This document shows, piece by piece, positions 3,736 through 52,568 of a stretch of 56,850 nucleotides of DNA. A model generated the notes under the pieces. The model ran no database searches, was not told the origin of the DNA, and saw only the letters and a program-made list of their open reading frames with translations. This stretch comes from a virus (taxonomy: Duplodnaviria; Caudoviricetes), in the IMG/VR virus record IMGVR_UViG_3300020156_000033, positions 1 through 56,850 of that record; one strand, 5' to 3'. Numbering within the stretch: position 1 is the first letter of the stretch; every line of letters begins with the position of its first letter. Made by a program: the position numbers and the translations under genes.

Positions 3736-3737
3736 CG

Positions 3738-12331: not shown

Positions 12332-12539
12332 CGCGGTTGTGCTGTCTGTGACCCGGTTCCACTAGGGTGGAAGCCGCGCCGCAGCCGGGCAGCCAGGTCA
12401 GAACAGGCCGCAGGGTGCAGGGCTGACCGAGTACCGCGTATCGATCTGCGGCCTGTCGCGTGCGAGCGCCGTGAAGCACACGCCCGAGCGGGGTGTGCTT
12501 CGCGGGGTCCGACACGGGACCGTGAACGGGAAGGACACC

Positions 12540-12569
12540 ATGGAGAACGACGAGGAAGTACGCGCTTGA
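12540..12569 (+). CDS. 9-codon leader minigene MENDEEVRA
   Basis: ACGGGAAGG RBS; its TGA overlaps the TTG start of the exonuclease. Confidence 0.45.
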   Translation: MENDEEVRA

Positions 12570-13285: not shown

Positions 13286-13311
13286 CACACACCGACACGG
13301 GAAGGAACACC

Positions 13312-29900: not shown

Positions 29901-30491
29901 CACGATCGTCCAGTCCACCACGCCTTGGTCGGTGAGCTGCATCAGCGTGGTGAACAGGTCCTGGCCCGCGTCGAACCCCATGGTCAGCGACGTCGCCCAG
30001 GCGTCGCCGTTGGAATCGAGGGACGAGGTGAAGCTGTAGTCCAGCTGGGGCACGTTGCCCCGGTCGCGCGCCTCGTTGATGAGGGTCAGCAGCACATTGC
30101 CCGGCGAGGACGCCGAGAAGTTCCGCTTGCCCTGGTCATCGAACAGGGTGTAGCGGATGTTGCGGACCTTCTTCATCACCCAGCCGTAGCTGGGCATGGT
30201 GTAGTTGACCAGCCCTTCGCGGGCGAGGTCGTCGTTGGCCGAGCGCAGCCGCAGGAACCGCATGCCCGCGTATTCGGTGTACTCCTCCTCGCCCTCGCGG
30301 GCCAGCTGGAGGGCGATCTCGACGGGCTGGTTGAGCAGTTCGTGCCGCCGCGCGCGGGGGTGGTAGCCCAGGGTCAGCGAGGAGAGGTCGTTGAGCGGCC
30401 CGGCGAACTGGAGGCTGGAGGGGTCGGGCAGCTCGCCCAGCCGGTCGCCGTCCGGTTCGTAGGCGGTCAGCTTGTACCGCAGACCTGTCAC
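26985..30491 (-). CDS. Minor tail / host-specificity protein with fibronectin type III domains
   Basis: Follows the distal tail gene; YAVRVRAI and LTAVDNSGNES FN3 motifs; AITTGKIAANAITA repeats. Confidence 0.85.
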   Translation of the reverse strand: MTGLRYKLTAYEPDGDRLGELPDPSSLQFAGPLNDLSSLTLGYHPRARRHELLNQPVEIALQLAREGEEEYTEYAGMRFLRLRSANDDLAREGLVNYTMPSYGWVMKKVRNIRYTLFDDQGKRNFSASSPGNVLLTLINEARDRGNVPQLDYSFTSSLDSNGDAWATSLTMGFDAGQDLFTTLMQLTDQGVVDWTIVGRQLQVYNANGALNLDKSTGPDAVSLFYGRDLVAAPDDASYEALAGRVLVQGDNGIYLDMPNSGALTPWGIWEDYLTQSGVSDVATMQVLAQSSLDKTADKRVQMTREIRFPSAHKLPYLDYRPGDHILAPNSEGVQEKLRIRQVTLTADTGNRLGGNLVLNDRFLERDIMQQRKLAGITGGIGMPGGSGGRPVPEGEDGRTPSAPENLVLGTTTYIDGAGRPQAQVSAAWDLVDTATTGGDMQIDRYAVELRRNEFGLPWQEVTRTTDPDNTATMGPLDINTSYAVRVRAIGHNDIYSGPSEVETILTLPDTTPPPEPSDPTTSVRLGVISVVWDGLAFNGAGMVADFDHVNVYMAPGGTNDWAMIGTLYRAGTLVVPGQPYGEARDFRLTAVDNSGNESGPSGIASATPEPLNPSEILTPGSIGYELLADNAVRDRVLQDGAISSSKIATGAVIADKLNARAVTAEKLAIGGFENAIVDPGLTDPAVNDVREVIASTGTSSGWTATYGYTFPVGRKGYQVELTGTQPASGTLAWIMPLQTGADATPVSLNDLRNSAPENFYAVEDLTEVTYRCQVYRANYSAASSIDLYVVWYYRRADDTRYTLNAPLTAYPGPGASASDVSTYTYVLDIDTLNASDPDNPVTHILPLMWIQLNLAANPGMEQGAEFGVYDFELPMFGFGSTLIQNGAITTGKIAANAITADNLMVGSVTAGAIAADAIKTTQLDADAITSKHTITGATIQTTATASRGLKITSTGMTGYSSSGQVTLSYSAASGDMTATGQFQSGIAGQRAILSNAVYPGRAGVQFHTGLTSRELQPCIFGESSSAGGSYGAGALVALSAETTINNSGRAALVLQQGMGGVKLATEYGDYKTGIESNLRIMNIWGEFTGAHDTDDLIRAGYRTSAGSSAGTVPWPVPPRSGEARPVITPLAAATRSFYVSEIGSNSFAWACNASVSGIFYMAFQGGAG

Positions 30492-31321
30492 GTCGTGGTC
30501 CTCCGCCCCCGCACCACTACGACGGCTCCCGTCCCCGTGATGTCCAGGGTCAGCGAGCTGGTACCCCCGCCGCCCAGCTCAGGAAGCGCCGACGGAGCGA
30601 GCATACCGTTTCCTCGAACAGACAGACGATCGATGACGCTGGTCTCCTGCGCGGTCCAGCTGCTGGTGGTGTTGCGCCAGGCGGTGAACTCCCCGCAGTC
30701 GATCAGCAGGTACTCCCCCGAGGGGATGCCGACCCCGCCGAACCACCGGACCCCCGTCCCGCTGACGTCGTCGTCCAGCGTGAAGGAGGTCACCGGCCCC
30801 GTAATGCGGATCTGGAGATCGGTGACCGGGGCGGTGGAGTCCGACACGAAGGGGACCTCGATCCCCGTGCCCTCGGTGATGGTGTGCTCGATGTAGCCCT
30901 CGGCCGTCCACCGCCCCGAGGGGATGTTCATGGTGACCAGGGTCTTGATCATGTGCAGGTGGTCGGTGCAGGTGTAGATCGGGGCGGAGGTGGTGACCAG
31001 CTGCGCCTGCGCCGTCTCGGTGCCGCCCGCCGTGGTGCGCCGCACGGTGACGGGCCGCTGGGCGCCGACGCCCAGGAGGCGCAGCAGGTAGCGGTAGCGC
31101 TGGTCGAGCACACCCGCCGAGGAGGCCGTGATCTTCATGTCCAGGATCAGGGTGGCCGCGCTCATCGGGTCGTCCCACAGGGCCAGCGTGCCGTGCATGC
31201 GGGGGATCTCGACGTTGACGCGGCGCATGCTCAGTCCCGAGGTGTAGCTGGTCGTGCCGACCAGCTGGAACCCCGCCGCCTTGTTGTCCAGGTCGAAGCC
31301 GTCGATCTGGTACTGGAGCAT
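30488..31321 (-). CDS. Distal tail (Dit-like) minor tail protein
   Basis: Directly after tape measure; STAPVTD...ITGP motif. Confidence 0.75.
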   Translation of the reverse strand: MLQYQIDGFDLDNKAAGFQLVGTTSYTSGLSMRRVNVEIPRMHGTLALWDDPMSAATLILDMKITASSAGVLDQRYRYLLRLLGVGAQRPVTVRRTTAGGTETAQAQLVTTSAPIYTCTDHLHMIKTLVTMNIPSGRWTAEGYIEHTITEGTGIEVPFVSDSTAPVTDLQIRITGPVTSFTLDDDVSGTGVRWFGGVGIPSGEYLLIDCGEFTAWRNTTSSWTAQETSVIDRLSVRGNGMLAPSALPELGGGGTSSLTLDITGTGAVVVVRGRRTTT

Positions 31322-34300
31322 CAGCCCAGCTCCCCGAGGTTGGCCGCGTACTGGAGCACGCGGTTGGTGGTGACCGACGTGGGCTCGGCCTGCGGGTGGT
31401 TGTTGGTGATGGTGATGTCGTAGACGATGCGCGGCCCGCCCTCAGGCCCGCGCCGCACGGCGCTGGCCGCGAAGTCGGGGATGCGCGCCTGGAGGCTGGC
31501 GGAGTTCTGGATCTGCTGGGCGTTCTCCCACGCCTGCGCCTGGCCGCTGACCCCAGCGCTGCCGCCGCGCACGTACTGGCCGAGCTGGTCGTTGTTGATG
31601 GCTTCGAGCACACCCGCGTACTTGCGCGCCGAGTGGGCGTTGACCATGAACTCGTCCTTGCTGGCCGCGATCAGGATGTTGTCCTGGCGGGGACCGCCCT
31701 GGCCGCCGATCCAGCCGCCATCGGCGTACCCGGCGACCACGCCCAGGGATTCCCGGAAGTTGCGCCGCAGCCAGCCGAACAGGTCGTCGGCGTTGTCGAA
31801 CAGTGCGTTCCAGAAATTGGACCACTTGCGCCAGAACGAACCCGTCTCGAAATCGGCGGTGGCGTCGATCTCGCGGCCGTCGGCCTCGTCCAGTGCCCGC
31901 TGCTGCTGTTCCAGTGCGAGCTGGCCACGACGAGTGTCGATGTCGGCAGTGGAGACGGGGTTGACATCCTCCAGCGAGTTGATCTCTTCGGCGTAGTCGG
32001 CCACGATCTCTTCGACCGGGCGCTCACCGGCGCGCATCTCCTCCAGGAACCGGTACACCAGCTGCTCGCCCATGTCTCCGGCCGTACCTTCGGCCAGCGG
32101 GATGCCGCCCTGGAGGATATCGACCATGCCCTGCACACCGTCGTCGGTGGTCTGCATGAACAGCCCCGAGAAGGTCTGGAGCTGGGCGTCGGTGCCGTCC
32201 ACCAGCTGCTGCACCAGCGGCGCGGCCTCCGGACCGAGCTTGGCCAGCTCCATGGCCACGCCCGGGGGCAGCCGACCGGCCAGCTCCAGCATGTTGGTGA
32301 CCCAGTTGTGCTGGGCCTCCACGATCTTGGCCAGTTCGACCAGGTACTGGTCCAGGCTGAACGTCGCGTCCTCGGCGAACTGCGCGGTGGAGGCGCTGGC
32401 GGCCTGGTTGTTGGCCTCGGTCGCGGCGCGGGCCTCGTCTTCCAGCACACGCCGCCGCTCCTGCGCGGCCTCGTAACGCTGCTGGGCCGCCGTCTCCCGC
32501 GCCTCCCGGGTCGCCGCCGCCTGGGCCTGGATCTGCTCCAGCCGGGCCGCGCTGCGCTCCTGGATCTGCTCGGACTTCAGCGCGGCGGCCTCCTGGATGG
32601 AAGCCAGCCGCTCCGCGCTCTGCTCCTGGCGCTGCGCACTCAGCTCCTGGGCCTTGGCGCTGTTGGCCTGCGCCTTCTCCAGCGCCTCGGTGAGCTGGAG
32701 CACAGCCTTCGACGCCTGCTCGGCCGCCTTCTGCGATTCGGTGACCGCGTTCTGCGCCTTGCCGTGCTCGGCGGCGGCGGCGGCGGCCTTCTCGCGCGCG
32801 GCGGCCTCGTTGCGGATCGCCGCCTCCAGCGCGCGCTGCCACTGCACCTGGTTCTGCGGGTCGGCGTTGGCCAGCCCCAGCTCGGCGGCCTGCCGCGAGG
32901 CGATGGCGGCTTCGAGCTGCTTGTTGGCGTTCTCCTTGCGCTCGGCCGCGTCCTCCTCGGCGCGTGCGGACTCCTCGGCCAGCTGCTCGGCCTCGCGCTG
33001 GGTCTCCTCAGCGGCGCGCAGCTGCTCCTCGGCCGCCGTCTCGGCGTCGGCCATCTGCTTCTCGTAGTCGCGCATGGCCTTGACCAGCGCGTCGTGCTGC
33101 TTCTCCGCCGCCTTGACGACGGCCTCCTGCTGGGCCTGCGCCTGCTTCACCGTCTGCTCGTGCTGGCGCCGGGCGGCGTCCACGACGGCCTTCTCCTGGG
33201 CCTGCGCCCACTTGCGGACCGCGTCGTACTGCTTCTTGGCCGCCTCGACGGCGCCGTTGTCCAGCTCCCGGCCGCTCGGCGTGCGCTCGCGGCTCGTGCT
33301 CCCGCCGCCGCCCCCTCCGCCGTCGCGACGGCGGTTGGCCGCGTCCTGGGCGTTGCGCCAGGCGTCGGTGGCCGAGCCGAACCCGGTGAGCGCGCCGCGC
33401 AGCGCGTCGGCGTCGGCCTGGGCCTGCTGCATCTGGTCGCCCATGGCGTCGGCGGCGCTCCCGGCGGCGTCCAGTCCACCGGCGGCCCCGGCTCCGGCGG
33501 CCCCGGTGTCGGCCATGCTCGTGCCCAGCAGCTCGTTGGCCCGCTGTGCCCCGGTGACCTGATTGGCCTGGCCGTCGATGGCGCCGCCCAGCGCCTCGAT
33601 CTCCATGGCCAGGTCATTGGCCTCCATACCCGCACTCGTCCCGTAGGGGACGAGCTGCCGCAGCATCTCGCCGAACTGCCGCATCTTCGAGCTGGACTCG
33701 CTGGCGGAGACACCCGCTTCTTCCAGCTGCTGGCGCAGGTTCTCGGTGGCGCCGCCCTCCTCCTCCAGACCTGCGGCGATCGCCTCGTTGAGATCGATCC
33801 CCATGTCACGGAAGGAGTTGTACAGCTCTTCGTCCTCGGTGATCGCCTTGATCTCGTCAGACGCGAGCACAGCCTGGGTGATCCAATCCTGGGTCGCACT
33901 GCCCAGGGCGGCGGCGGAACCGGTGTAGCGGTTGGCCGCCTCCTCCGACGCCTCGCCCGCCACGCGGAAGCCGTCGGCCGCCGCATACAGCCCGCCCTGC
34001 GCGGTGCGGCTGGCGGTGTCCATGTTGCTGGACTCCCCAGCCGCCACCCCCATCGACTGCCCCAGCTCGTTGAGGCGCCCCTGCGCGGCCTGCGCCGCCT
34101 GCTCGGCCTCGCTGAGCCCTCCGGCCGCACCCGAGGAGTTCTCCCCGATGACGCGGATCGCCTCACCGGTGTCGCGCCACGCGGCGGTGTCGGTGGCCAC
34201 GGCCTGGCGCAGTCCTTCGACGCCGCCGCCCGCCTGGGTCAGGGCCTCGGCCGAATCGCTGATCTTCGTGGAGGCGTCGGTCGCCGAGCCGGTCAGCTCG

Positions 34301-36321
34301 TCCCAGGACATGGCCAGAGCCGCGACGGCCGACACACCCGCCAGCGCCCAACCCCATCCAGGGATCGCTGAGATGGCCGCTCGCAGCCCAATGGCACCGA
34401 CCGTGGCTCCCCGCATGCCCGTCGCCGCCGCAGCCGTCCCAGCGGCCGTCTGGGCGCCCATGGCACCCATTGCCGCACCGGCCGTCGTCGCGCCCGTGGA
34501 CATGGTGCCGAACGTCTGCGCGGCGAGCACACCCAACCCGCGCAACGAGACGCCGCCGATGGAGGCGGTCTGCGCCGTGACGAACTGGAGGGCCAGCATC
34601 GCCGCCATGGTGGTGGCCAGCGCGATGCGGAAGCCGAGGAAGGCGGCCACGCCCAGGCTGATCAGCGCCACGACCGCGCCGAGCGCCCGGACGAAGGGGT
34701 TGTCCAGCAGGGTGATCAGCTCGGTGACGCCGTTGACCAGCAGTGTCAGCACCGGCACGAACCCCTGGCCCACACCCGCCGCGAAGTTGCGCATCGCGTT
34801 GATCATGCGGGTGATGCTGGCGTCCAGGGTGTTGAAGACGACCGCCGACTCCTCGCCGAGGTAGGTCCCCTGGGCGTAGGAGGTGTAGGCGGTGTTCATG
34901 CTGTCGGCCAGCAGCTGGTAGTTGCCGCTGAGCCGGGACACCATGTTGATGTCACGGACGTTGGCCATGCCGAGTTCGGTCATGACCTGGCTGGCACTGC
35001 CGCCCGCGTCGCGCACGCCCTCCAGGCCCTGGATGAACCGCATGAAGAACTCGTCGGGGTTGGTCTCCCAGAGCTTCGCGGTCTCCTGGACGGTCATGTC
35101 CATGACCCGGGCGTAGATCGCCAGGTTGTCGTTGACGCCCATGACGGCGTTGTCGATGTCGGCGAAGATGCGCTCGGTCGAACCGCGCGCCGCCTCCGGC
35201 GCGACCCGCAGGGAGGCCAGGGCCGAGGACAGGCCGAGCACCGACTGCGTGCTCAGGCCCGCCTGGTTGGCCGCCGCCGCGATCTGCTCGGCCACGCCCA
35301 GGATGTCGGTCTCCGTGGCCGCCGAGTTGTCGCCGAGTTCGGAGACCGAGCTGGCCAGGTTTCGGTAGTCGGCGGGGAGCACACCCAGCAGGTTGGAGAT
35401 CCGGCCGAAAGACTTCGACGCCTGCTCGGCGGTGACGTTGGTGGTGGCCGCGAACTCCGCGACCACCCCGGTGAAGCCCTCCAGGTCCCCCGCCGCGATG
35501 CCCATCTGCGACCCGAAGCTGGCGATCTCGCTGATGTCCTCGAAGGCCAGGGGGATCTCGGTCCCCATGTCCATCAAACCCTGGCGCAGTTCACCGAGCT
35601 GGGCGTCGGTGGCGTCGGTGGTGCGCTGCACCTGGGCGAAGGCCACCTCGTACTCGCGCGCCGCCTGCACGGCGGCCACCGGCCACGCCACCAGCGCCTG
35701 GGCCGACTGCTGGTAGACCCCGACGAGGTCGTACATGGCGTAGCGCAGCGCCATGGTGTGCTCGATGGTCTCGGCCATGCCCGCCGCCGCGCGGGTGTCG
35801 GCCTGCGCCTTGGCGTCGCTGGCCTGGGCCATCTGCGTCATCTGGTTCTGGAGCTGCGTGCCCGACTGCCCGGCCTGGGCGGTGAGGCTGTTCATCGTCC
35901 GCAGGCTGGCGGAGTAGGTGTTCACCGCCCCGGCCATCTGCTGGTAGAGGCCGAGCGTGTTGCGCAGCGCGCTGGCCTCCTTGTCGCTCATCCCCTGGAC
36001 GGAGGACAGCGACCGGCCCATCTGCTCCAGCGCGGTGTTGAAGTTCTGGCTGCTCTGCGCCGCCGTCGCACTGGAGCGCGCCAGCTTGTCCGTGGCCGTG
36101 GCGTAGGCCGCGACCGACGAGGTGAGCTGCTGGTACAGCCGCAGCGTCGCCGACAGCGACGCGGCCTTCTTCTTCTCGACGGCCTCGACGTTGCCGAGGC
36201 TGGTCTGCAACGACCGCAGCGACGTGTCCCAGGCACCGCCGCTCTGCGCGGCCTCACGGGCGGCGGACGTGAACTGCCCGAGGTCCACCCGCACCCGTGC
36301 GGTTGCATCGAAGTCGGCCAC
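31321..36321 (-). CDS. Tape measure protein (1666 aa)
   Basis: GTG 36321 overlapping previous TAG; Ala-rich helical repeats; C-terminal YADGG-IGG-GGPRQD...EFMVNA. Confidence 0.92.
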   Translation of the reverse strand: MADFDATARVRVDLGQFTSAAREAAQSGGAWDTSLRSLQTSLGNVEAVEKKKAASLSATLRLYQQLTSSVAAYATATDKLARSSATAAQSSQNFNTALEQMGRSLSSVQGMSDKEASALRNTLGLYQQMAGAVNTYSASLRTMNSLTAQAGQSGTQLQNQMTQMAQASDAKAQADTRAAAGMAETIEHTMALRYAMYDLVGVYQQSAQALVAWPVAAVQAAREYEVAFAQVQRTTDATDAQLGELRQGLMDMGTEIPLAFEDISEIASFGSQMGIAAGDLEGFTGVVAEFAATTNVTAEQASKSFGRISNLLGVLPADYRNLASSVSELGDNSAATETDILGVAEQIAAAANQAGLSTQSVLGLSSALASLRVAPEAARGSTERIFADIDNAVMGVNDNLAIYARVMDMTVQETAKLWETNPDEFFMRFIQGLEGVRDAGGSASQVMTELGMANVRDINMVSRLSGNYQLLADSMNTAYTSYAQGTYLGEESAVVFNTLDASITRMINAMRNFAAGVGQGFVPVLTLLVNGVTELITLLDNPFVRALGAVVALISLGVAAFLGFRIALATTMAAMLALQFVTAQTASIGGVSLRGLGVLAAQTFGTMSTGATTAGAAMGAMGAQTAAGTAAAATGMRGATVGAIGLRAAISAIPGWGWALAGVSAVAALAMSWDELTGSATDASTKISDSAEALTQAGGGVEGLRQAVATDTAAWRDTGEAIRVIGENSSGAAGGLSEAEQAAQAAQGRLNELGQSMGVAAGESSNMDTASRTAQGGLYAAADGFRVAGEASEEAANRYTGSAAALGSATQDWITQAVLASDEIKAITEDEELYNSFRDMGIDLNEAIAAGLEEEGGATENLRQQLEEAGVSASESSSKMRQFGEMLRQLVPYGTSAGMEANDLAMEIEALGGAIDGQANQVTGAQRANELLGTSMADTGAAGAGAAGGLDAAGSAADAMGDQMQQAQADADALRGALTGFGSATDAWRNAQDAANRRRDGGGGGGGSTSRERTPSGRELDNGAVEAAKKQYDAVRKWAQAQEKAVVDAARRQHEQTVKQAQAQQEAVVKAAEKQHDALVKAMRDYEKQMADAETAAEEQLRAAEETQREAEQLAEESARAEEDAAERKENANKQLEAAIASRQAAELGLANADPQNQVQWQRALEAAIRNEAAAREKAAAAAAEHGKAQNAVTESQKAAEQASKAVLQLTEALEKAQANSAKAQELSAQRQEQSAERLASIQEAAALKSEQIQERSAARLEQIQAQAAATREARETAAQQRYEAAQERRRVLEDEARAATEANNQAASASTAQFAEDATFSLDQYLVELAKIVEAQHNWVTNMLELAGRLPPGVAMELAKLGPEAAPLVQQLVDGTDAQLQTFSGLFMQTTDDGVQGMVDILQGGIPLAEGTAGDMGEQLVYRFLEEMRAGERPVEEIVADYAEEINSLEDVNPVSTADIDTRRGQLALEQQQRALDEADGREIDATADFETGSFWRKWSNFWNALFDNADDLFGWLRRNFRESLGVVAGYADGGWIGGQGGPRQDNILIAASKDEFMVNAHSARKYAGVLEAINNDQLGQYVRGGSAGVSGQAQAWENAQQIQNSASLQARIPDFAASAVRRGPEGGPRIVYDITITNNHPQAEPTSVTTNRVLQYAANLGELG

Positions 36322-36740
36322 TAGCCACGCTCCATCCTCTGGTAGGACTCGCGCCGCGAGGGCAGTCGGTCCTCCGCGAAGACGGTCGTCGGCTGGACCG
36401 TCCTCACCTCGCCGGGCTTGCTCTTCTTCTTCTCGTGGTCGCGGCGGTCCTGCTCCAGGACAGCACACGCATAGCAGAAGCTGGACTCGATCTTAAACTG
36501 CACGCGGTTGTCTGTGCTGTAGGCCAGCCAGACGGGTACTCCGCACTGCCCGCAGGTCTCGGCCTCCAGGATGGTCAGGGCCTGGGCCAGCTTGCGGTCC
36601 GCCGGGGTCCACCCGTCCGAGGGCTGGGCCTCGGCCAGGATGACCAGCGGCGGCACACCCCACTCCCGCGCCGTCTTGATCGCGTTGACGTAGTGGCGGT
36701 TACCCGGCCACGTCAGCGTCTCCGCCAGGAAATCCGGCAT
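36321..36740 (-). CDS. Tail assembly chaperone, downstream ORF
   Basis: Between TAC and TMP; W---DR-LA-A----E---C--CG motif. Confidence 0.75.
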   Translation of the reverse strand: MPDFLAETLTWPGNRHYVNAIKTAREWGVPPLVILAEAQPSDGWTPADRKLAQALTILEAETCGQCGVPVWLAYSTDNRVQFKIESSFCYACAVLEQDRRDHEKKKSKPGEVRTVQPTTVFAEDRLPSRRESYQRMERG

Positions 36741-37461
36741 CGGCCATCTTGTCGAAGACGTTGCCGACCATCATCGCGCGGCTGGAGGCGTTGATCAGCT
36801 TGACCCACTCCATGGGGATGAGCTTGTGGCGCAGGCCCTCCAGGTTCTCGCGGGTGAACTCCCCGCTGTGCTCCTGCCCCCGCCCGTTGGTGATCCGATC
36901 GACGCAGGCGATGAACACGTTGCAGATCAGCTCTTCGGAGAGTTCGCCCTGAAGCTGCTCCTGCTCCTCCTTGGACAGCGCCTTCAGCTTGGCGGGGGTG
37001 AAGCCCAACCGCTCCTCGACCTCCTTGCGGATCGCGTCGGCCTCCCGCTGTTCGAGGCTGTGCATGTGGAAGGTCAGCGAAGAGCCCACGATCTCGGACT
37101 CCAGGTCGTCCTTCTCCAGCGACAGGTTCTTCTTCTCCACCGTCAGCGCCTTGACCATGTTCTCCGCCGGGACTTCCTCGCCGATCCCCAGCGTCATCGT
37201 CTCGCGCTCCTGCTTGGCGCGGGCCTCGGCCTGGCGGACCTCCCTGTCGATCTCCTGGAGGCGCTTGACGATCTCGGACCGCCGCGCCCCGCGCTCGACA
37301 TCGAGGAACACCGTTTCGGAGAAGGTGATCCTAGTGGCCTTCTTCTGCACCCATTCGGACAGGTCGAAGCTGTCCATGGTGGTGGCGGCCTCGACCTGCT
37401 TGCGGACGTCCTCGACCAGCTTTTCGGAGATGCCGTCGAAGCCGTGCCCCTGCTCGCTCAT
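36700..37461 (-). CDS. Tail assembly chaperone
   Basis: Position after the tail-tube gene; overlaps next ORF by 41 nt. Confidence 0.75.
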   Translation of the reverse strand: MSEQGHGFDGISEKLVEDVRKQVEAATTMDSFDLSEWVQKKATRITFSETVFLDVERGARRSEIVKRLQEIDREVRQAEARAKQERETMTLGIGEEVPAENMVKALTVEKKNLSLEKDDLESEIVGSSLTFHMHSLEQREADAIRKEVEERLGFTPAKLKALSKEEQEQLQGELSEELICNVFIACVDRITNGRGQEHSGEFTRENLEGLRHKLIPMEWVKLINASSRAMMVGNVFDKMADAGFPGGDADVAG

Positions 37462-37495
37462 GTGCTGCTCCCGTGTCCACCCGTGTCATGAGGAA

Positions 37496-37536
37496 GGCCC
37501 TGCACTCCCGGACACGGGCGACGGGAGTGCAGGGCC
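37496..37536 (-). terminator. Terminator hairpin after tail-tube gene; loop complementary to GACACGGG box
   Basis: Perfect 15-bp stem, 11-nt loop UCGCCCGUGUC on minus strand. Confidence 0.75.
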
Positions 37537-37552
37537 AGCTTATCGCCGTTAT

Positions 37553-37795
37553 CTACGGCGCGGTAACGGTGATGTCGCTGGTGTCCGACGCACCGGCGTA
37601 GACGGCGGTGACGGTCGCGGTGCCCGCAGCGACACCGGTCACCGTACCGTCGGCGTCCACCGTGGCCACGCCAGGCGCCGACGACGTCCACGTGGCCGAA
37701 TCGTCCACGTTCACCGGGGTGCCGCCGTCGACGCTGTACGCGGCGGCCAGTTCCGTGGTGGCCCCTACCTCGACTGAGGCGCTTGCCGGGGTCAC
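37553..37795 (-). CDS. Bacterial Ig-like (Big_2) domain, probably fused to the major tail protein by -1 frameshift
   Basis: (SL)TVTPASASVEVG...TWTSSAPGVATVDADGTVTGVAAGTATVTA; no RBS. Confidence 0.85.
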   Translation of the reverse strand: MTPASASVEVGATTELAAAYSVDGGTPVNVDDSATWTSSAPGVATVDADGTVTGVAAGTATVTAVYAGASDTSDITVTAP

Positions 37796-37797
37796 CG

Positions 37798-38364
37798 TCA
37801 GGGAGAAGGGACGACCTCGACCCAGCCGTCGGAGGAGACGCCCTGCGCGTAGAACCGGATGTCGGACTGGACCGGCCCCTCGTTGTCGTTGATGGAGTTC
37901 GGGTCGCCCGACAGCACCTGGAAGACCTGCACCTCGTCACCGGCGACGATGGGCTCACCGGCCCGCTTGCCGACGCGCTTGATGAGGTAGCCCGGCTGCA
38001 TGGGCTTCTTGAACGCCTCGTAGGACTGCATGTAGACCGAGGCGGTGTCGGCGCTGTCCCCCTCGCGGAAGAACTGGATCTGCGCCTCGTAGTTCTTCCG
38101 GGTCGGGGTCTCCACGTTGGAGTCGTCGCAGATGGACGCGGAGTCGTCGGTGTCGCGGTCGGTCCACCCGAGGGTGAAGGGGTCCACGACGGCGCAGGAC
38201 ACGTTCAGCACACCCGAGCCCTGGACGGCGGGGTCGGCGGTGAAGTCCGGCGGGGTCCAGGCCGCCGTCAGCTCGGCGACCGTGGGCGCGTTGATGTCGG
38301 CGATCGCGTCGTATCCGGCCGCCCAGTACACGGACACGTTGGGCGGCAGCATCTTCTGGGGCAA
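37798..38364 (-). CDS. Major tail (tube) protein
   Basis: RBS GAGGAGG; ADINAPTVAEL...SCAV...NYEAQIQFFR; gene order. Confidence 0.85.
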   Translation of the reverse strand: MPQKMLPPNVSVYWAAGYDAIADINAPTVAELTAAWTPPDFTADPAVQGSGVLNVSCAVVDPFTLGWTDRDTDDSASICDDSNVETPTRKNYEAQIQFFREGDSADTASVYMQSYEAFKKPMQPGYLIKRVGKRAGEPIVAGDEVQVFQVLSGDPNSINDNEGPVQSDIRFYAQGVSSDGWVEVVPSP

Positions 38365-38408
38365 GGTTCCTCCTCATTCGCGTGGCCACGCGATACGCAA
38401 GTGTATCG

Positions 38409-38849
38409 CTAAGTGTTGACCAGATTGTTGTCAACGATCCCGCTGAACGACAGCGGTATCGCGTACCGCACGGGCACACCAGAGGGGTCGATCGGTGTTC
38501 GCGGGTTGGGGTTGCCGTCCTCGGACAGCTCCCCCTGCCCGGCGGGTTCGTAGCCCTCCAGGAGGTCGCGCACGCGGTTGGCCACGCTGCGGGCGATGGC
38601 GCCCGTCGGACCCACGCACTGCACGATGAAGGGGACACGCTTGCTGTGCCCGCGCACGCCGCAGATGCCCGCGTAACCGAAACCGGCGGGCAGCTTGCCG
38701 CCCCACCACACCACGAGGTAGGGCTTGAGCAGCCCGTCCTGGCGCGGCAGGTCCACGTAGTCGGGCACACCGCCGTCGTAGACGCCGGTCCCGGGGATGG
38801 TCTTCAGGCGGACGACGATCTGGTCCTGCCACTCCTGGAGGCTGCTCAC
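38409..38849 (-). CDS. Tail terminator-like protein
   Basis: VYDGGVP...PYLVVW; position before the tail-tube gene. Confidence 0.7.
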   Translation of the reverse strand: MSSLQEWQDQIVVRLKTIPGTGVYDGGVPDYVDLPRQDGLLKPYLVVWWGGKLPAGFGYAGICGVRGHSKRVPFIVQCVGPTGAIARSVANRVRDLLEGYEPAGQGELSEDGNPNPRTPIDPSGVPVRYAIPLSFSGIVDNNLVNT

Positions 38850-39262
38850 GTGATCCCCCGTCCCAGTGCTTCGGTGAGCTGCGCCCGCGTTGACAGGAAC
38901 GCGGTGTAGACCGCCAGCATCGGTTCGATGCCGTCGCGCGTGCCGAACTCCTGGAAGGGGGCGTAGTAGGGGCGGTCGGCGTCCCAGCCGAAGACCAGGG
39001 TCAGCACATCCCCCTGCTCCTCCAGCCGGTGCATGGCCATCGACTGCATGAGCCCGGTGTCCACCCGGCTCCGCAGCTTGATCATCTGCTCGGCCTCGGC
39101 ACCCAGCTCCAGCATGCGGGTGCGGATGCGGTTGCGCGAGGTGTTGAGGTAGTCGATGACCCACGCGGTGAGCGGCTGGTCGAACTGCCCCACCGGGCCG
39201 GTGTAGTAGTAGCGCTTGCCGCCGGAGAAGTCGTAGTTGTAGGACCACTCAACCCTGGCCAT
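38846..39262 (-). CDS. HK97 gp10-like neck/tail completion protein
   Basis: RVDTGLM...YAPFQEFGT...IEPM. Confidence 0.78.
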   Translation of the reverse strand: MARVEWSYNYDFSGGKRYYYTGPVGQFDQPLTAWVIDYLNTSRNRIRTRMLELGAEAEQMIKLRSRVDTGLMQSMAMHRLEEQGDVLTLVFGWDADRPYYAPFQEFGTRDGIEPMLAVYTAFLSTRAQLTEALGRGIT

Positions 39263-39701
39263 CGGGGTGCTCCTCCACGTCCACGTCGCACAGGATGTTG
39301 CGCAGCCAGGGGTTGGAGGAGTTCAGCGGGTTGCGCACGCGGAAGACGAAGGTCTCCAGATCGGGGTCGTCCGGGCAGTCGAGCACACGCACGACGGTGC
39401 CGATCGGAATGGGGGGCGTGTCCTTCAGCGGGATCTGGAGGCGCAGGGCGTGCATCGTGATCGGGTCGTCGGCGGCCACACGCGAGCGCGCGCGCCAGTC
39501 CTTGTTCGGCTGGCAGCGCGCCTGCCCGGTCCACAGGACCTCGACGGGCGCCGTCACCTCACCGGTGTCGGGGTCCCACACCGCCGCGCCGTCGTCGGAC
39601 AGCGACAGCCGCACCGTGGCCAGCATGAACCCGGCGGGCACCGAGCGGTGGTGCCTGGTCCACCGCGCGTCCAGCGACGGCCGCAGGTTGAGCGGGCTCA
39701 T
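39249..39701 (-). CDS. Head closure / head-tail connector (DUF6093-like)
   Basis: WDPDTG...WTGQAR-Q...LQIP...DPDL. Confidence 0.7.
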   Translation of the reverse strand: MSPLNLRPSLDARWTRHHRSVPAGFMLATVRLSLSDDGAAVWDPDTGEVTAPVEVLWTGQARCQPNKDWRARSRVAADDPITMHALRLQIPLKDTPPIPIGTVVRVLDCPDDPDLETFVFRVRNPLNSSNPWLRNILCDVDVEEHPDGQG

Positions 39702-40078
39702 CGCGGACCGCACAGGGGCGGGCGCGGGTAGAACGGCACGACCTCGAAGAACGCCTCGCCCTCGGCCGCGTCGTCCTCCTCGGCCTGGTCCCACAGGTCG
39801 TTGGCCCGCGCGCGCAGCGCCTGCGCGACCTTGGACCCGTCGGTCTGAAGGTCCTCGGTCTTGATGACCTTCGAGATCAGCGCCTCGGACACGGCGATGG
39901 CGCCGATCGCCGAGGACGCCGCGCGCTTGACGCTGCCGCTGTAGATGTCGAGCAGCGCCTGGAGGTGGTCGTCGGGGAAGATGTAGGACGCTTCGCCGTC
40001 GCCCTCCCAGTCCACTTCCTCGGTGTCGGGGATGAGCGCGCGGACCTTGCCGAGGTCGGTGCTGAAGTCCACTGCCAC
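39698..40078 (-). CDS. Head-tail adaptor
   Basis: GKVRALIPD...IF-D..L...AA; follows the capsid gene. Confidence 0.75.
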   Translation of the reverse strand: MAVDFSTDLGKVRALIPDTEEVDWEGDGEASYIFPDDHLQALLDIYSGSVKRAASSAIGAIAVSEALISKVIKTEDLQTDGSKVAQALRARANDLWDQAEEDDAAEGEAFFEVVPFYPRPPLCGPR

Positions 40079-40139
40079 GTGTCTGCCCTCCTGGGTCGCT
40101 GCCAGCTTAGACCAGCACGCGTGTGCTGGTCATGGCATG

Positions 40140-40225
40140 AGAAGAGGGGCCGCCCACGGGAAGGTGAAAGCGGCCCCTCTGGTCTCACCACCAGCTGCAC
40201 CAGGAGATCAACAGCCCTCTCCTGG
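40140..40225 (-). ncRNA. Candidate sRNA or structured capsid 3' UTR; terminator loop antisense to CCACGGGAAGG
   Basis: -10-like TACCCT (40230-40235), hairpin CCAGGAG/CTCCTGG, 11-bp stem 40143-40153/40170-40180 with loop UUUCACCUUCCCGUGG. Confidence 0.6.
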
Positions 40226-40260
40226 GGCAAGGGTACTACATGCGGAGCCGGATACCGCTA

Positions 40261-41391
40261 TCAGGTGCCCGAGCCGTTGGACACGATCGTCGGGGACGGG
40301 TCCAGGCCCTTGGCCCCGACGAAGTGCCGGACGCGGTACTGGACGTCGTCGTTGAGGAACGACCCCTGGAGCGGGTCGATGTCCCCGCCGCCCAGAGCGC
40401 GGCCCTGGTCGCCGGAGATCCGCAGCTCAGGGGTCTCGTGCCCGCGCAGGAACCCGGTGACCAGCGCGGTCCGGCCGCTGATCCCGGTCTCGCCCCCGGA
40501 GGGGACCAGGTACCAGGTGGTGTCCGCGTTGACCGAGGTGTCCAGGACCGGCAGCCAGTACTCGACCACGACCGACACCGGGAAGGGCATCCCGGGGTTG
40601 GTGCGGGTGGTCTCGACGGAGCCGTCGGGCAGCGTCACCTCGCGGGTGACCTCCACCGCGTTCAGGATCTCCTGGGCGACGATCTGGAGCGACGGCGGGA
40701 CCACCAGGGCGAAGTTGCGGACGGTGACCGGACGGCCGTTGACCCGGCGGTCGGTGACCTGGCGCATCGCCTCGACCAGCGACTCCCGGGTGAGCGGCGG
40801 GTTGCCGTCCATCAGGTTGCCGTTGCTGGCGTTGAAGAACGCCGGGTTCGGGCCGGTGGTGGTGGCCAGCACACCCGCCGTCAGGATCTGCTCGGTCTGG
40901 CGGGCCAGCTCGGCCATGGCACCGGGCATCTGCTGGATGAGCTGGTACTCGTCGTTGATGAACGCTTCCATGCTGAAGGGGAAGCGGCCACCGTGCTTGC
41001 CGATCTGGTACTGCCCGCTCGCCGTGTCGTACTCGAAGACCGGGTACTCGGTCAGCTCGGGCACGCGCGGCAGCATGGTCATGCCGTTGGTGTCGCCCAG
41101 CGTCGGGGCGCCGCCGTTCACGGCGGGCAGCAGGCCGGTGTCCAGCCGGAACTCGCGCCAGGTCTGCGGCTTGAAGTCCGGGACGGCGACGCGCCGCGAG
41201 TACTGCGGCCAGGTGACGGGGAAGGCATCGTACTGCGCCCGGACCTCGTCCTGCGTGATGCGGCGGAACAGCTCCGGGAACTCGTCGGAGGTGGAGACCG
41301 CCTCCTTGAGCCGGGCCTGCGCAACCCAGTCGCCGCGCATGGCGGAAGCGAGGGTGCGCGCGGTGCCCAGCACCTTCTCAGACGTGATCAT
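40261..41391 (-). CDS. Major capsid protein
   Basis: STSDEFP, VPDFKP, VPELTEYP, K-G..F-FS-EAFIND, LVVPPSL, YRVRH; RBS GAGAGG. Confidence 0.9.
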   Translation of the reverse strand: MITSEKVLGTARTLASAMRGDWVAQARLKEAVSTSDEFPELFRRITQDEVRAQYDAFPVTWPQYSRRVAVPDFKPQTWREFRLDTGLLPAVNGGAPTLGDTNGMTMLPRVPELTEYPVFEYDTASGQYQIGKHGGRFPFSMEAFINDEYQLIQQMPGAMAELARQTEQILTAGVLATTTGPNPAFFNASNGNLMDGNPPLTRESLVEAMRQVTDRRVNGRPVTVRNFALVVPPSLQIVAQEILNAVEVTREVTLPDGSVETTRTNPGMPFPVSVVVEYWLPVLDTSVNADTTWYLVPSGGETGISGRTALVTGFLRGHETPELRISGDQGRALGGGDIDPLQGSFLNDDVQYRVRHFVGAKGLDPSPTIVSNGSGT

Positions 41392-41421
41392 TCTCAATCC
41401 TCTCGTATGCAGTCGTCGCGA

Positions 41422-41817
41422 CTACGCGGCCGGGTCGGGCGACTGGCACACGCGGACGATGGTGCGGCCGTCCTTGGTCATCCCCAGCTTGTGGCCGAAC
41501 AGCTTGCCGCCGGTGGGGAGGGTACCGACCAGGGGGGCCTCGGTGCCGATGTAGACCTGCGCGCCGATGGCCAGCGCGTCACCACCGGTGATGGTGAAGG
41601 CCCACGCACCGTTGAGGGCGACGGAGGCGTAGCCCTCGTCGTTGAACCCCTGGTAGGTGAAGTCGGGGGCGTCGGGCGTGTCCTGGCTGGCCGTGGACCG
41701 GGTGGTCTGGGCCACGCCCACGATGGAGCCTACGCGCACGGGGTCGCCGCTCTCGGTGCCCTCGGGCACCGGCAGCGAGATGTAGGTGCCCTCCTTGAAG
41801 ACCTCGTTGCGCGCCAT
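41422..41817 (-). CDS. Capsid cement / decoration protein (DUF2190-like)
   Basis: MARNEVF...SGDPVRVG-IVGVA-T. Confidence 0.75.
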   Translation of the reverse strand: MARNEVFKEGTYISLPVPEGTESGDPVRVGSIVGVAQTTRSTASQDTPDAPDFTYQGFNDEGYASVALNGAWAFTITGGDALAIGAQVYIGTEAPLVGTLPTGGKLFGHKLGMTKDGRTIVRVCQSPDPAA

Positions 41818-42926
41818 TACTTGCTACCTCCGAAGATGGTGTTGTTGAGCGAGCGCAGCTGGGTCGCGTACCCGTTGGGTCCGCCCAGCGCGCCGGACTC
41901 GCGGAGCACACCACCCGGGGCGCGCGAGGTCAGCGACTCCTGGATCTCGTCCACCAGCGCCTGCTCGGCGGCGATGGCGGCGTCCAGGTCCTGGCCGGGC
42001 TTGTAGTCGTTGGCCAGCCGCTTGCGGCTGGCGGCGGGCAGGCCCGAGCCGTCGAGCTTGTCCACGACCTCGCCGTAGCTCAGCGCGGACGCGTCGGCGG
42101 AGGCGTCCTTCTCCTCGCCGCCGGTGTCCCCGGCCTTCTCCTCGCCGCCGCCGGTGGCGACGTCGTTGGGACCCTGGCCCGGCGCCTGGTGCATCGGCCC
42201 CGTGCTGGCCGACGGCGTCGCGGCGCGGTCCTCGGCCTCGGTCAGGCGCTTCTCCAGCGCTTCCATCTTCTGGGCCATCGAAGTCATGGTCTCGGACACC
42301 GAGGTGATCATCTCACCCAGCCGGTTCATGCCCACCTTGTCCGATTCCTTCAGCTCGAAGATCGGCGCGGCCTTGGGCGCGGACTCCCCGCCACCCTGGC
42401 GAGCGCTTTCGGCGATGCTCACAAGTTTCCCTCCTGCACCCGCTCGGGTAACGACGTCGACTGACAGACCTTCTACGATCTCGGTCACCACGAGGAGCCC
42501 GGTGTCGGGGTTCTCCTCGGTGATCCCGATGGCGCGGATGGACAGGCCGACGGTATCGGGTAGTTGGTTCTCGGACAGATCCGCGACCAGGTCGCGGGCC
42601 TCGCCCAGGAACTGCACGGTGGCGAAGAGCCCGTGGCCGTCGGCCCCGTTCTCATACACCGCGTCCTCCAGGAGCACACCCGCCAGGTCGCGCACGGAGC
42701 GCTCGGGGCGCTCCCACTCCTCGCTGCTGGTGGGGTGGTCCAGGTACATCTGCATTCCCTGGCGGAAGACCTTGGCCTCCGCCGCCTTCGCCAGCACCGC
42801 CGCCGGGTAGAACCCGGAACTGCCGCTGACGTCGGCCTCGATGATGAGCACACGCCACTTGCCCGCAGTGCTCCCCCGCTTCGCGGGGCGCGTGGCCTCT
42901 CTCAGTTCTGCGCGCACGGTGCCCAT
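41817..42926 (-). CDS. Capsid maturation protease-scaffold fusion
   Basis: GSSGFYP, YLDHP, RSVRDLAG, GLSIRA, SVDVVT-AGAGGK, coiled C-terminus. Confidence 0.82.
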   Translation of the reverse strand: MGTVRAELREATRPAKRGSTAGKWRVLIIEADVSGSSGFYPAAVLAKAAEAKVFRQGMQMYLDHPTSSEEWERPERSVRDLAGVLLEDAVYENGADGHGLFATVQFLGEARDLVADLSENQLPDTVGLSIRAIGITEENPDTGLLVVTEIVEGLSVDVVTRAGAGGKLVSIAESARQGGGESAPKAAPIFELKESDKVGMNRLGEMITSVSETMTSMAQKMEALEKRLTEAEDRAATPSASTGPMHQAPGQGPNDVATGGGEEKAGDTGGEEKDASADASALSYGEVVDKLDGSGLPAASRKRLANDYKPGQDLDAAIAAEQALVDEIQESLTSRAPGGVLRESGALGGPNGYATQLRSLNNTIFGGSK

Positions 42927-42946
42927 CGTCCTCCTCGTTCTCGGAA

Positions 42947-42979
42947 ATCATAGCGGTGTTACCAGGTTTTCGGTAACAC
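42947..42979 (-). promoter_or_regulatory. Late promoter candidate with upstream palindrome
   Basis: GTGTTACC-N8-GGTAACAC, 3 nt, then -10 TATGAT and RBS GAGGAGG. Confidence 0.55.
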
Positions 42980-42981
42980 GG

Positions 42982-44424
42982 TTAGTCCGTGTGTGCCTGC
43001 AACCCCTCGTCGCGGAGTTCGTGGTCGCCGTAGCTGGGCGGTTCCACCTGCGCCATGCCGTCCGCACCGGGGGCCGGAGCGGGCGGCGCGGGCTCGGGGG
43101 GCTCCTCCCTGTCGCTGTCGTAGTCCAGCGCGCGCAGCAGCATCGCGCGCACCTCCTCGGGATAGAGCATCCCCGTCCCGTCGGCCATGGTGATGGCCTG
43201 GATGAGGCGGTGCGTGGGCTCGGTGGTGACCGGCGGCCACACGACGTCCCACTCGAAGCCGAGCAGGTCGGCGATCTGGCGGCCCGCCGCGTCCCACAGG
43301 CGCTGGCGCGCCTTCATCGCCATGCCCGTCACCGGCTCCAGCGATTCGCTGTTGGCCGCGTTGCCCGAGGGGTCGCTGAGCATGACGGGCAGCGGCACCT
43401 CCAGCCCGGCGGCCACGAGCGCGGCCAGCGCCCGGCCCTCGTTGAAGTTCACCGAGGAGGAGTTCTTGCCGAGCGCCGACAGGTCCTGCCCGGCCCCGAG
43501 CACGGCCGTGTTGCCGACGTTGGCGTAGCCGCCGGTCATCGGGTCGCGCAGCGGCTGGTCGGCGATCTTGGACGCCACCGCCTTCTGCCCCTTGCCGGTC
43601 GCGCTGGTGACCTTCCACGCGTACTGCGCGTAGGACTTCAGCAGCTTCTTGCAATCCTCCAGGAACTCCTTGTACGCCTGGCTCCAGAAGATGACGGGGA
43701 AGACGTCGGGCAGGCCCCAGGTCCAGCCCGCGAGCTTGTTGGCCGACACGGTGACCACGACCTTGCTGTAGTCGACCGCGTCCCCGGCGATCGTCTTCGG
43801 CTTGTCGGCACCGTCGTCCTTGTAGCGGTCGTAGGAGGGGTACCACTCGCGCCGCTGGACCGCCTCGGGCGCGGCGGAGGGGTCGGCGAAGGGCCGGACT
43901 TCCTCGTTCCAGCTGCGCCGGTAGAACCACACGTCCTCGTCGTCGCCCGGAGCGGTGATCGTGGCCGTGAGCTGCCGGAACGGCAGTCGCTGGATCTTCT
44001 TGCGGGCGACGTCGACCAGGAAGGACACGTTGCCGTCGCCCGCCAGGCTGCGCTCCAGCTCGTACTGGGCCTGCGGCGAGGCGAGCACACGCACCAGGGA
44101 GGGGGTGCGCCACGCGTCGCCCTCGGCCCCGATCTGCACGCCCTCGCCCCAGATGTAGGACGTGCGCACGGCCACGGCCCGCTTGATCAGGGGGTTCACC
44201 GTGATGAGCGCCCGGCAGGTCTCGGCCGTGCTCTGGATGTTGGACAGCGGTATCTGGTCGTCGCCCTCGGTCAGCCCGCCCAGCGGCTTCCACCCGAGGT
44301 CGTCCACCGCGAGCGCGACCTGCGTCATGAGGTCGGAGTTGCGCTCCTCCAGCAGCTCCATCTGGGTCTCCAGGTGCCGGACCGTCTCGGTCAGCTGCGT
44401 GTGCTCGGTGGCCTCGGTGGTCAT
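42982..44424 (-). CDS. Portal protein
   Basis: ATG 44424 after GGAGAGG; NPLIKRAV..R..YIWG, DGN-F, WGLPD; position after terL. Confidence 0.85.
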   Translation of the reverse strand: MTTEATEHTQLTETVRHLETQMELLEERNSDLMTQVALAVDDLGWKPLGGLTEGDDQIPLSNIQSTAETCRALITVNPLIKRAVAVRTSYIWGEGVQIGAEGDAWRTPSLVRVLASPQAQYELERSLAGDGNVSFLVDVARKKIQRLPFRQLTATITAPGDDEDVWFYRRSWNEEVRPFADPSAAPEAVQRREWYPSYDRYKDDGADKPKTIAGDAVDYSKVVVTVSANKLAGWTWGLPDVFPVIFWSQAYKEFLEDCKKLLKSYAQYAWKVTSATGKGQKAVASKIADQPLRDPMTGGYANVGNTAVLGAGQDLSALGKNSSSVNFNEGRALAALVAAGLEVPLPVMLSDPSGNAANSESLEPVTGMAMKARQRLWDAAGRQIADLLGFEWDVVWPPVTTEPTHRLIQAITMADGTGMLYPEEVRAMLLRALDYDSDREEPPEPAPPAPAPGADGMAQVEPPSYGDHELRDEGLQAHTD

Positions 44425-44469
44425 CGCCTCTCCCGTGTGCTCGGTTCCGGCCAGTCTAGTCCCGGGCAT

Positions 44470-44570
44470 GAAGAAGGCCCGGTCGCTGTTCCCCCTTCAG
44501 CGACCGGGCCTTCACCGGAGTTGGCCTCCGATACCCCCACCTGTACAGACTCTCGTCGTATGTACCGGTA
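44470..44570 (-). ncRNA. Candidate sRNA 2 (about 100 nt)
   Basis: -10 TATCAT 44576-44581, two hairpins, perfect 16-bp terminator stem 44473-44513. Confidence 0.5.
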
Positions 44571-44607
44571 GGGACATGATACCACCCTACCCGAGCGGTA
44601 GGTGAAG

Positions 44608-44733
44608 ATGCGGATGGCCCCGGCGGGTGCCAGCCCGCCGGGGCCGGGAACGGACCTGACTGGAGAGGTAGAGCCGTTCCGATGGAGGACCCCTGGCGCT
44701 GGAGGTAGGGCAGTACCGGAGCGCCGGAGCTTC
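44608..44733 (-). ncRNA. Candidate sRNA 1 with anti-RBS loops
   Basis: -10 TATACT 44739-44744; loops CUGCCCUACCUCC and CUACCUCUCCA; 12-bp terminal stem 44616-44645. Confidence 0.65.
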
Positions 44734-44772
44734 CCACGAGTATAGCAGTAACCGGGTGGTAGCATGGAGTCA

Positions 44773-44824
44773 GAAGGCCCGCGCCCCGGTCCTCCTCAGA
44801 GGAACCCCCTTGGCGCGGGCCTTC
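44773..44824 (-). terminator. Terminator after terL
   Basis: 13-bp inverted repeat GAAGGCCCGCGCC/GGCGCGGGCCTTC. Confidence 0.7.
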
Positions 44825-44835
44825 ACTGTGCCCGG

Positions 44836-52103: not shown

Positions 52104-52118
52104 GGGGGAACCTCCTGT

Positions 52119-52553: not shown

Positions 52554-52568
52554 GGGGGAACCTCCTGT

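Follow-up and report, generated by a model that had tools for sequence, protein, structure and literature searches.

What does a very stable RNA hairpin do between the tail tube gene and the tail assembly chaperone gene of a phage, when its apical loop carries the complement of a short motif that occurs twice in the leader of the chaperone gene? The question arises in the window analysed here, which is an IMG/VR virus record of an uncultured phage (56,850 bp, GC 68.5%). The hairpin, H_tube, and the elements that surround it on the minus strand are as follows.

37496-37536, minus strand: H_tube, with arms 37536-37522 and 37510-37496 and loop 37521-37511
37511-37518, minus strand: CCCGUGUC within the H_tube loop, the exact complement of GACACGGG
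37487-37495, minus strand: pyrimidine-rich tail UUCCUCAUG directly 3' of the stem, a tail type that also follows the hairpin at 44473-44513
37480-37487, minus strand: proximal GACACGGG box in the chaperone leader
37470-37477, minus strand: distal GACACGGG box, overlapping the chaperone Shine-Dalgarno sequence (SD) GGGAG (37472-37468)

The initial annotation had described a minus-strand loop on a 15-bp stem with two copies of GACACGGG just downstream, and both features are borne out: the stem is perfect over 15 bp, the loop is the 11-nt UCGCCCGUGUC, the hairpin has a dG of -33.4 kcal/mol, and both boxes stand in the chaperone leader. After the tail UUCCUCAU, this leader reads GACACGGGUG GAC ACGGGAG CAGCAC AUG; the distal box runs on into AG CAGCAC AUG, with the chaperone start at 37461. 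The complement between loop and box had been put at 8 nt and is present, but on the proximal box it in fact extends to 10 nt with one G-U pair. Likewise, the hairpin had been placed after the tail-tube gene; it does lie downstream of that gene, but the ORF directly preceding it (37553-37795) encodes a Big_2 domain. The genes that frame the element are listed here.

1-21.6 kb, plus strand: plus-strand genes, with a helicase, an exonuclease, a Sak4-like protein, a primase and a DNA polymerase among their products
~53.6 kb down to 21.6 kb, minus strand: the minus-strand arm, with terminase, portal, protease, decoration and capsid-like genes, and further the tube gene, chaperones, putative tape measure, tail proteins and endolysin
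40261-41397, minus strand: capsid-like gene
37798-38364, minus strand: tail tube (major tail) gene, 188 aa (Pfam PF25595 Phage_TTP_16, E 8.6e-28; PHROG 2491, E 6e-36)
37553-37795, minus strand: Ig-like ORF of 80 codons (Pfam Big_2, E 2e-12), with stop UAG at 37555-37553
37544-37560, minus strand: small 6-bp hairpin CGCCGU AGAUA ACGGCG over the Big_2 stop codon, present in every fold computed
36700-37461, minus strand: G-like part of the tail assembly chaperone, 253 aa (PHROG 20192 / 15960, E 3e-4), with AUG at 37461-37459
36321-36740, minus strand: T-like extension of the chaperone in another frame (PHROG 20192, E 4.8e-23, profile positions 199-332)
31321-36468, minus strand: ORF of 1,715 aa, a putative tape measure named from size and position alone

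No integrase or repressor was recognised in a PHROGs scan of 62 proteins, and at the nucleotide level named phage records resemble the window in one place only, a short part of the tube gene shared with Streptomyces and Arthrobacter phages. The tube gene ends in UGA, and the Big_2 ORF lies in its -1 frame, which is open from 37936, 46 codons before the tube stop. A programmed frameshift from the tube gene into the Big_2 frame (37796-37936, minus strand) is likely; no canonical slippery heptamer was found for it, the nearest sequence being C CCU UCU at 37810-37804, and the fold downstream of the candidate shift region is unremarkable (z +0.62). The G and T ORFs of the chaperone cover consecutive parts of PHROG 20192, with the T match starting where the G match ends. 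Their overlap site (36722-36740, minus strand) reads GGA UUU CCU GG, as it does in locus L007; it reads GGG UUU CCU GG in L003, L004, L005 and L009 (near 3720-3780) and GGG UUU CUU GG in L015. The two overlapping ORFs probably represent the G/G-T pair of a tail assembly chaperone, joined by a frameshift that we infer from their layout; as T is read in frame +1 (or -2) with respect to G, a UUU_C slip before the rare CCU codon is suggested.

Tail assembly consumes hundreds of tube subunits and needs few chaperone molecules, and to our knowledge, apart from the G/G-T frameshift, little explains how phages control the tube:chaperone ratio inside one operon. The gene identities at this locus, tube and then chaperone G/T, fit a need for unequal expression, and a hairpin that marks where the tube message ends, while bearing the antisense of the start that follows, would solve the ratio problem compactly.

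The motif that the loop complements is over-represented in the window, with 15 copies of GACACGGG on both strands against 5.92 +/- 2.65 expected (0 of 100 shuffles reached 15), and most copies lie just upstream of start codons. Sites named previously at 308, 9161, 9844, 12511, 13294 and 19620, together with 26183 before gene 26174, all exist and lie 0-18 nt upstream of a start codon on the coding strand, except for 12511, whose ATG opens a mere 9-codon ORF; the composite overlap reported with them was found as GACACGGGAAGG at 9161, 13294 and 19620. GACACGGG forms the 5' half of a leader cassette, (TAG)CACACACC-GACACGGGAAGGA-N5-ATG, whose fullest versions, TAG-CACACACC-GACACGGGAAGGA-ACACC-ATG, occur at 13294, 19620 and 9161, with shorter versions preceding at least 10 plus-strand genes and a few minus-strand genes.

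13283-13314, plus strand: example of a full cassette, TAG CACACACC GACACGGGAAGGA ACACC ATG
9161, 19620, 308, 6654, 7059, 8186, 12511/12526, 17426 and 21277: other copies of the cassette

Exact copies of the word ACGGGAAGG show the same polarity, nine of ten being on the coding strand ahead of a start codon, and all nine sense copies precede plus-strand genes, the DNA polymerase and Sak4-like genes among them. In eight cases a plus-strand ORF of 76 aa or more begins, with ATG or GTG, 6-12 nt further on; the ninth copy (12526) stands before a 9-codon mini-ORF at 12541, and the tenth (40156) is antisense, within the loop of a hairpin downstream of the capsid-like gene. Overall, cassette 8-mers on the transcribed strand occupy 50 sense versus 9 antisense positions, the latter in 6 clusters. 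The cassette thus has the two features seen in start-associated sequences (SAS) from other phages, namely a motif at the ribosome binding position that reaches beyond the SD and a single orientation relative to transcription. Its sequence is not that of the published Cluster K or EF consensus, the motif being a different one, and the cassette is specific to this phage; a search of IMG/VR with a 17-mer of the cassette gave two matches only, one copy each in unrelated contigs, which we judged to be chance.

A number of further observations concern these leaders. The region 12511-12570 (plus strand) holds a two-box leader (GACACGGG ... ACGGGAAGG) and then the 9-codon ORF, ahead of an exonuclease-like gene; this ORF may encode a leader peptide or reflect a start that was mis-assembled. 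The sole other antisense copy of GACACGGG on the plus-strand arm lies within a gene of 119 codons (870-1228, plus strand); considered as a functional site, this copy (967-974) was set aside as chance, since it is inside a coding gene and has no notable fold (z -0.13). Hairpins stand directly upstream of cassette leaders at 6609-6637, 7001-7036, 9118-9144 and 12473-12501 (plus strand), and two of them share the downstream spacer GAAGAAGGAGUUCA.

Folding of the RNA around H_tube shows that the hairpin has a competitor. The minimum free energy structure drops the 15-bp stem in all fragments folded (84, 91, 121, 131, 181 and 271 nt), and in place of the stem 37527-37511 pair with 37468-37487. The loop part of this refold joins 37520-37511 to 37478-37487 (10 bp, one G-U pair), and the SD part joins 37527-37521 to 37468-37474 (7 bp), where CUCCCGU of the inner 5' arm meets ACGGGAG and the SD GGGAG is paired at every base. 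Further, the outer 5' arm (37540-37529) pairs with codons 3-7 (37440-37453) over 12 bp in the 121-, 131-, 181- and 271-nt fragments. The advantage of the refold over the hairpin-constrained fold is 2.1, 2.6, 10.4, 4.1 and 1.3 kcal/mol in five fragments of 84-271 nt. Dinucleotide shuffling of the downstream 56 nt did not reproduce the 10.4 kcal/mol of the 121-nt fragment in any of 1000 trials, and the 2.1 kcal/mol obtained with the 37-nt leader alone was reached by 4 of 1000 shuffles. As a control within the genome, six of six other strong hairpins keep their stems in their natural flanks (ddG 0.0). The loop duplex is predicted at -19.5 kcal/mol with the proximal box (including UG at 37479-37478) and at -15.1 kcal/mol, over 8 bp, with the distal box, and when the H_tube loop is ranked by duplex energy against 78 start regions, the chaperone's own start comes second. 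The predicted pairings support the conclusion that the complementarity of loop and arm to the leader is non-random.

The explanation that we tentatively prefer is that H_tube, a terminator-like hairpin between two cistrons, uses its loop to nucleate masking in cis of the chaperone start. H_tube would belong to a series of long, GC-rich stem-loops of terminator-like form that mark off the operons, and here it separates the tube gene, which with its Ig-like extension is needed in abundance, from the chaperone gene, of which little is needed; the 5' arm and apical loop of H_tube would together mirror the chaperone translation start region in antisense. In read-through transcripts the hairpin would form first; the exposed loop would capture a GACACGGG box, as a toehold or pseudoknot nucleus; starting at the top of the stem and moving down it, the leader would then displace the 3' arm; and the resulting long-range helix would bury the SD and flank the AUG, holding translation of the chaperone (G and G-T) far below that of the tube. 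H_tube may in addition have a role in termination or in stabilising the 3' end. A cis pseudoknot tuning chaperone translation had been proposed in the initial annotation, and tuning in cis is compatible with these results, the complementarity being non-random and longer than described; the fold itself, however, is nested and not necessarily a pseudoknot. On a rough geometric estimate, an H-type pseudoknot with the proximal box would need its 8-nt connector to span the 15-bp stem.

The route between the two folds constrains this model. The best direct nested path must climb ~26 kcal/mol from the hairpin state before the refold is reached, so that refolding is plausible only via capture of a box by the loop and subsequent stepwise displacement of the 3' arm. 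Several points count against cis masking: ten base pairs within an 11-nt loop are sterically strained, the advantage of the refold falls to 1.3 kcal/mol in the 271-nt fragment, and part of it comes from coding sequence on which ribosomes would sit during translation. A local duplication could also have produced, as by-products, both the perfect stem and the three-way similarity.

The same barrier, together with a hairpin that is kinetically first and very stable, is what one would expect of an ordinary intercistronic terminator, attenuator or 3'-end stabiliser, which would lower downstream transcription or protect the tube mRNA. The complementarity would then be incidental, a by-product of repeated CGGGAG and GACACGGG copies. 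We consider this somewhat unlikely, although it has the company that H_tube keeps in its favour. Strong hairpins, taken as those with a perfect stem of at least 9 bp and a dG no higher than -18 kcal/mol, number at least 19 on the sense strand of the phage, many of them at gene boundaries with a cassette-type leader downstream; the tail UUCNUCAUG is common to the hairpins at 37496-37536 and 44473-44513, and the tail word TTCNTCATG occurs 6 times against 0.56 expected. H_tube has the GC-rich stem-loop of an intrinsic terminator, and its tail UUCCUCAU, with 4 U in 8 nt, does not amount to a U-tract. The hairpin is also absent from the five terminator-like sites that a consensus scan returned for 30000-45000, a scan whose 8-nt loop maximum by itself excludes it; on these grounds we call it terminator-like. 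A search of the whole window with Rfam 15 gave no family at the gathering score, and the hairpins had no match even at E values as high as 1; three weak matches (E 0.4-0.8) lie elsewhere in the window.

The hairpin at 44473-44513 (minus strand) lies between terminase and portal, and its loop, AAGGGGGAA, is complementary to UUCCCCC in two identical leaders UGAACAGGAGGUUCCCCCAUG (52104-52110 and 52554-52560, minus strand), the sole sense copies. It was considered as a third loop directed against leaders and rejected, the 7-mer match being too short for significance on its own.

Comparison with other phages, the weakest part of the evidence, bears on the same question. Relatives of the tube protein were found at 14 loci (41-56% identity), of which 6 were inspected, and no conserved hairpin was found: five of the six have neither the hairpin nor the Big_2 ORF, which counts for an ordinary terminator or stabiliser and against cis masking. 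In the sixth, L007 (43% tube identity), the corresponding place (3113-3150) is taken by a 15-bp hairpin with an unrelated stem; its loop starts UCGCCCG, like that of H_tube, and has no complement in the L007 leader. Four contigs of tube-protein relatives show no enrichment of GACACGGG, a query with the chaperone protein found no relative in viral, metagenome or genome contigs, and the pattern of the hairpin arms with a free loop gave no match in viral contigs. At closer range, none of the sequencing runs listed is recorded as RNA; contigs came from 4 DNA runs, those of X4 and X5 being without cover of 37474-37555. The X2 contig, from a strain diverged by ~2%, spans 36900-37889 with 21 differences over 990 nt, none of them between 37355 and 37645; under uniform placement a gap of these 292 nt has an estimated chance of ~0.014. 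The X3 contig spans 36914-37541 with one difference, at 36965. This invariance shows conservation and carries no covariation signal. An element whose complementarity was incidental accounts poorly for the 292 invariant nucleotides, for an alternative fold that displaces the stem here but in none of 1000 shuffles and none of the six other hairpins, or for the existence of a second, independent-looking hairpin with a loop antisense to the cassette.

40143-40180, minus strand: this second hairpin, H_cap, downstream of the capsid-like gene, with an 11-bp stem and the 16-nt loop UUUCACCUUCCCGUGG

The loop of H_cap holds a 10-nt complement of CACGGGAAGG (40155-40164), the SD half of the cassette. 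H_cap has no target in cis and stays folded, which points to a role other than cis masking. Its tail, UCUCAUG, is like that of H_tube but one base shorter, and both loops contain CCCGUG, on unrelated stems. The two loops account for two of the six antisense clusters of cassette 8-mers on the transcribed strand. Of the 19 sense-strand loops (205 loop nt), two complement 8 nt or more of the 12-mer cassette, which corresponds to P(>=2) of 4e-5 under random placement and 1.5e-5 under a Markov model, values that overstate independence if H_tube and H_cap are paralogues, as is possible; if they are, a loop preserved while the stems changed would in itself hint that the loop is under selection.

These features have led us to weigh an action in trans, in which the capsid and tube hairpins end, or are processed into, abundant and stable late 3' fragments whose loops silence early and replication leaders (GACACGGGAAGGA) late in infection, the pairing with the chaperone leader being secondary. 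A trans antisense seed from an abundant late RNA was the other half of the earlier proposal, and it is compatible with the second anti-cassette loop and with the reach of both loops at strict cut-offs. The H_tube loop attains -15 kcal/mol or lower at 17 of 78 start regions (shuffled loops, 6.2 +/- 3.2; 3 of 500 shuffles reach this) and the H_cap loop -18 kcal/mol or lower at 15 of 78 (4.4 +/- 2.9; likewise 3 of 500). At a lax cut-off of -12 kcal/mol, however, real and shuffled loops are not separated (32 vs 26.6 and 52 vs 45.8). That the two hairpins follow the capsid-like and tube genes would suit such a role, as would the match of the H_cap loop to CACGGGAAGG when every sense copy of ACGGGAAGG stands before a plus-strand gene, and the CCCGUG and similar tails shared across differing stems. 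Even so, we regard trans silencing as the principal function as somewhat unlikely, though as a serious rival to cis masking. The RNA ends proposed at the hairpins find no backing in a tail of 4 U in 8 nt or in the list of the terminator scan, which lacks H_tube, and the H_tube loop matches its trans targets over 8 nt, compared with 10+7+12 nt in its own leader. The whole contigs G001 and G002 carry related leader words (in G002, CACGGACAAGG), yet an anti-cassette loop is missing from all 6+6 of their strong hairpins, and paralogy of the two hairpins, if real, would inflate the significance of their co-occurrence.

Overall, the complementarity exceeds chance on two independent counts, and the cis and trans readings are mutually compatible. 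Their combination, in which the loops of the hairpins closing the capsid and tube messages, as the two most abundant late ones, would constitute a phage antisense system that turns cassette leaders of early and replication genes off late and acts on the chaperone leader in cis, is a claim that we hold to be rather unlikely.

The arrangement of the motif also raises the question of whether it acts as DNA. Three copies of GACACGGG lie within 48 bp at the tube/chaperone junction, two direct with a spacing of exactly 10 bp and one inverted, as in a compound operator, and the orientation of the motif tracks the direction of transcription on both genome arms. In the stoperators of Cluster A phages, orientation likewise follows the direction of transcription. 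An asymmetric, stoperator-like site for a phage regulator is nevertheless a highly improbable explanation of GACACGGG: the motif stands 0-18 nt before starts, is fused to the SD and often has an upstream stop ~10 nt away, as is characteristic of a translation signal; no repressor or integrase was recognised when 62 proteins were compared with PHROGs; and the complementarity of the arm to the SD and to the coding sequence would be left unexplained.

A different dispersed word was seen in the course of this work. The 10-mer GAGCACACCC has 17 copies against 0.35 expected, mostly inside genes and antisense to transcription on both arms, with 10 of the 11 copies beyond 21.6 kb on the plus strand, and it also forms the arms of a hairpin at 2325-2366. 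G001 and G002 have their own versions, CGGCACAGGG (13 copies) and GAGGCACAGG (10 copies), and such a word could be a polar, Chi-like or operator-like motif.

25911, 26653, 31106, 34525, 42672 and 52402, plus strand: examples of GAGCACACCC
9469, 15351 and 18411, minus strand: examples of GAGCACACCC

Masking of an SD by alternative or long-range mRNA pairing is an established form of control, as in ermC-type attenuation and in the interaction between the icaR 3'UTR and 5'UTR. H_tube has in common with these systems that one segment has two possible partners and that one of the pairings buries the SD. It differs in that the competitor is a terminator-like hairpin upstream of the regulated gene in a polycistronic late mRNA, and in that no sensing event, such as a stalled ribosome or a ligand, is apparent. 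Intercistronic hairpins are also known to give unequal expression within operons, and phages use retroregulation, for example by lambda sib. Like these, H_tube is a stable stem-loop after a highly expressed gene and before genes of lower need; whereas they act via RNA decay or termination alone, the arm and loop of H_tube complement the next start. For the trans reading, the model is provided by the C-rich-loop regulatory RNAs of high-GC Gram-positive bacteria, such as the 6C sRNA (PMC6486639), whose C-rich apical loops are reported to pair with G-rich mRNA with no chaperone. The loops described here differ in belonging to mRNA-internal or 3' hairpins and not to a separate sRNA gene, and they have no Rfam match.

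The leader cassette has its closest parallels in actinophages. Over-conserved start-associated motifs have been described in these phages since 2011, and the relevant passages of the reports give their function as unknown (PMC3203893, PMC7302621, PMC11373665, PMC12699233); they comprise the SAS and ESAS of Cluster K mycobacteriophages and Cluster EF Microbacterium phages (PMC3203893, PMC7302621). In common with SAS, the cassette is an over-conserved motif at the ribosome binding position that reaches past the SD, has one orientation, lies mostly before non-structural genes and often has an inverted repeat upstream; the order of hairpin and then cassette recalls the inverted repeat and SAS (ESAS) organisation of Cluster K. 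The EF consensus, GGGAAAGGACCCC, resembles GGGAAGGAACACC of this phage (PMC7302621). Unlike SAS, the cassette extends 5' (CACACACC-GACAC) and often abuts an upstream TAG stop, and two antisense copies of it stand in hairpin loops of late mRNAs.

A partial counterpart to these antisense loops exists in Cluster K. In Anaya and Adephagia the single reverse copy of the SAS, noted by Pope et al., lies in a 10-nt apical loop of a stable stem-loop within a 385-bp non-coding gap (fold z-score -4.8).

550-603 of locus L020, equivalent to ~59849-59902 of Anaya (JF704106): anti-SAS stem-loop, subcluster K1

The region is present in 135 Cluster K records, and the outer stem of the K1 stem-loop varies by paired changes. 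Among 11 aligned phages the anti-SAS loop is kept in 7, reduced to CCUCCU in 2 (DarthP and Ekdilam) and lost in 2 (Keshu and SirPhilip); the same SAS, in 12-15 copies, is found in Keshu, SirPhilip, DarthP and Ekdilam as well as in Amelie, one of those with the loop intact. A reverse SAS copy is absent from TM4, Pixie and AnnaSerena. Since the SAS is unchanged where the loop is lost or altered, there is no system-level covariation in Cluster K: the parallel is real but limited to one lineage, and co-evolution of loop and motif is not supported. Were the antisense-loop system in the present phage true, it would give the SAS-type leader motifs in actinophages their first concrete mechanism, and the antisense copies in late-mRNA loops make the question of SAS function open to a simple experiment. 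H_tube, which is a member of no described family, would work in the manner of SD-masking systems and of antisense systems with C-rich loops.
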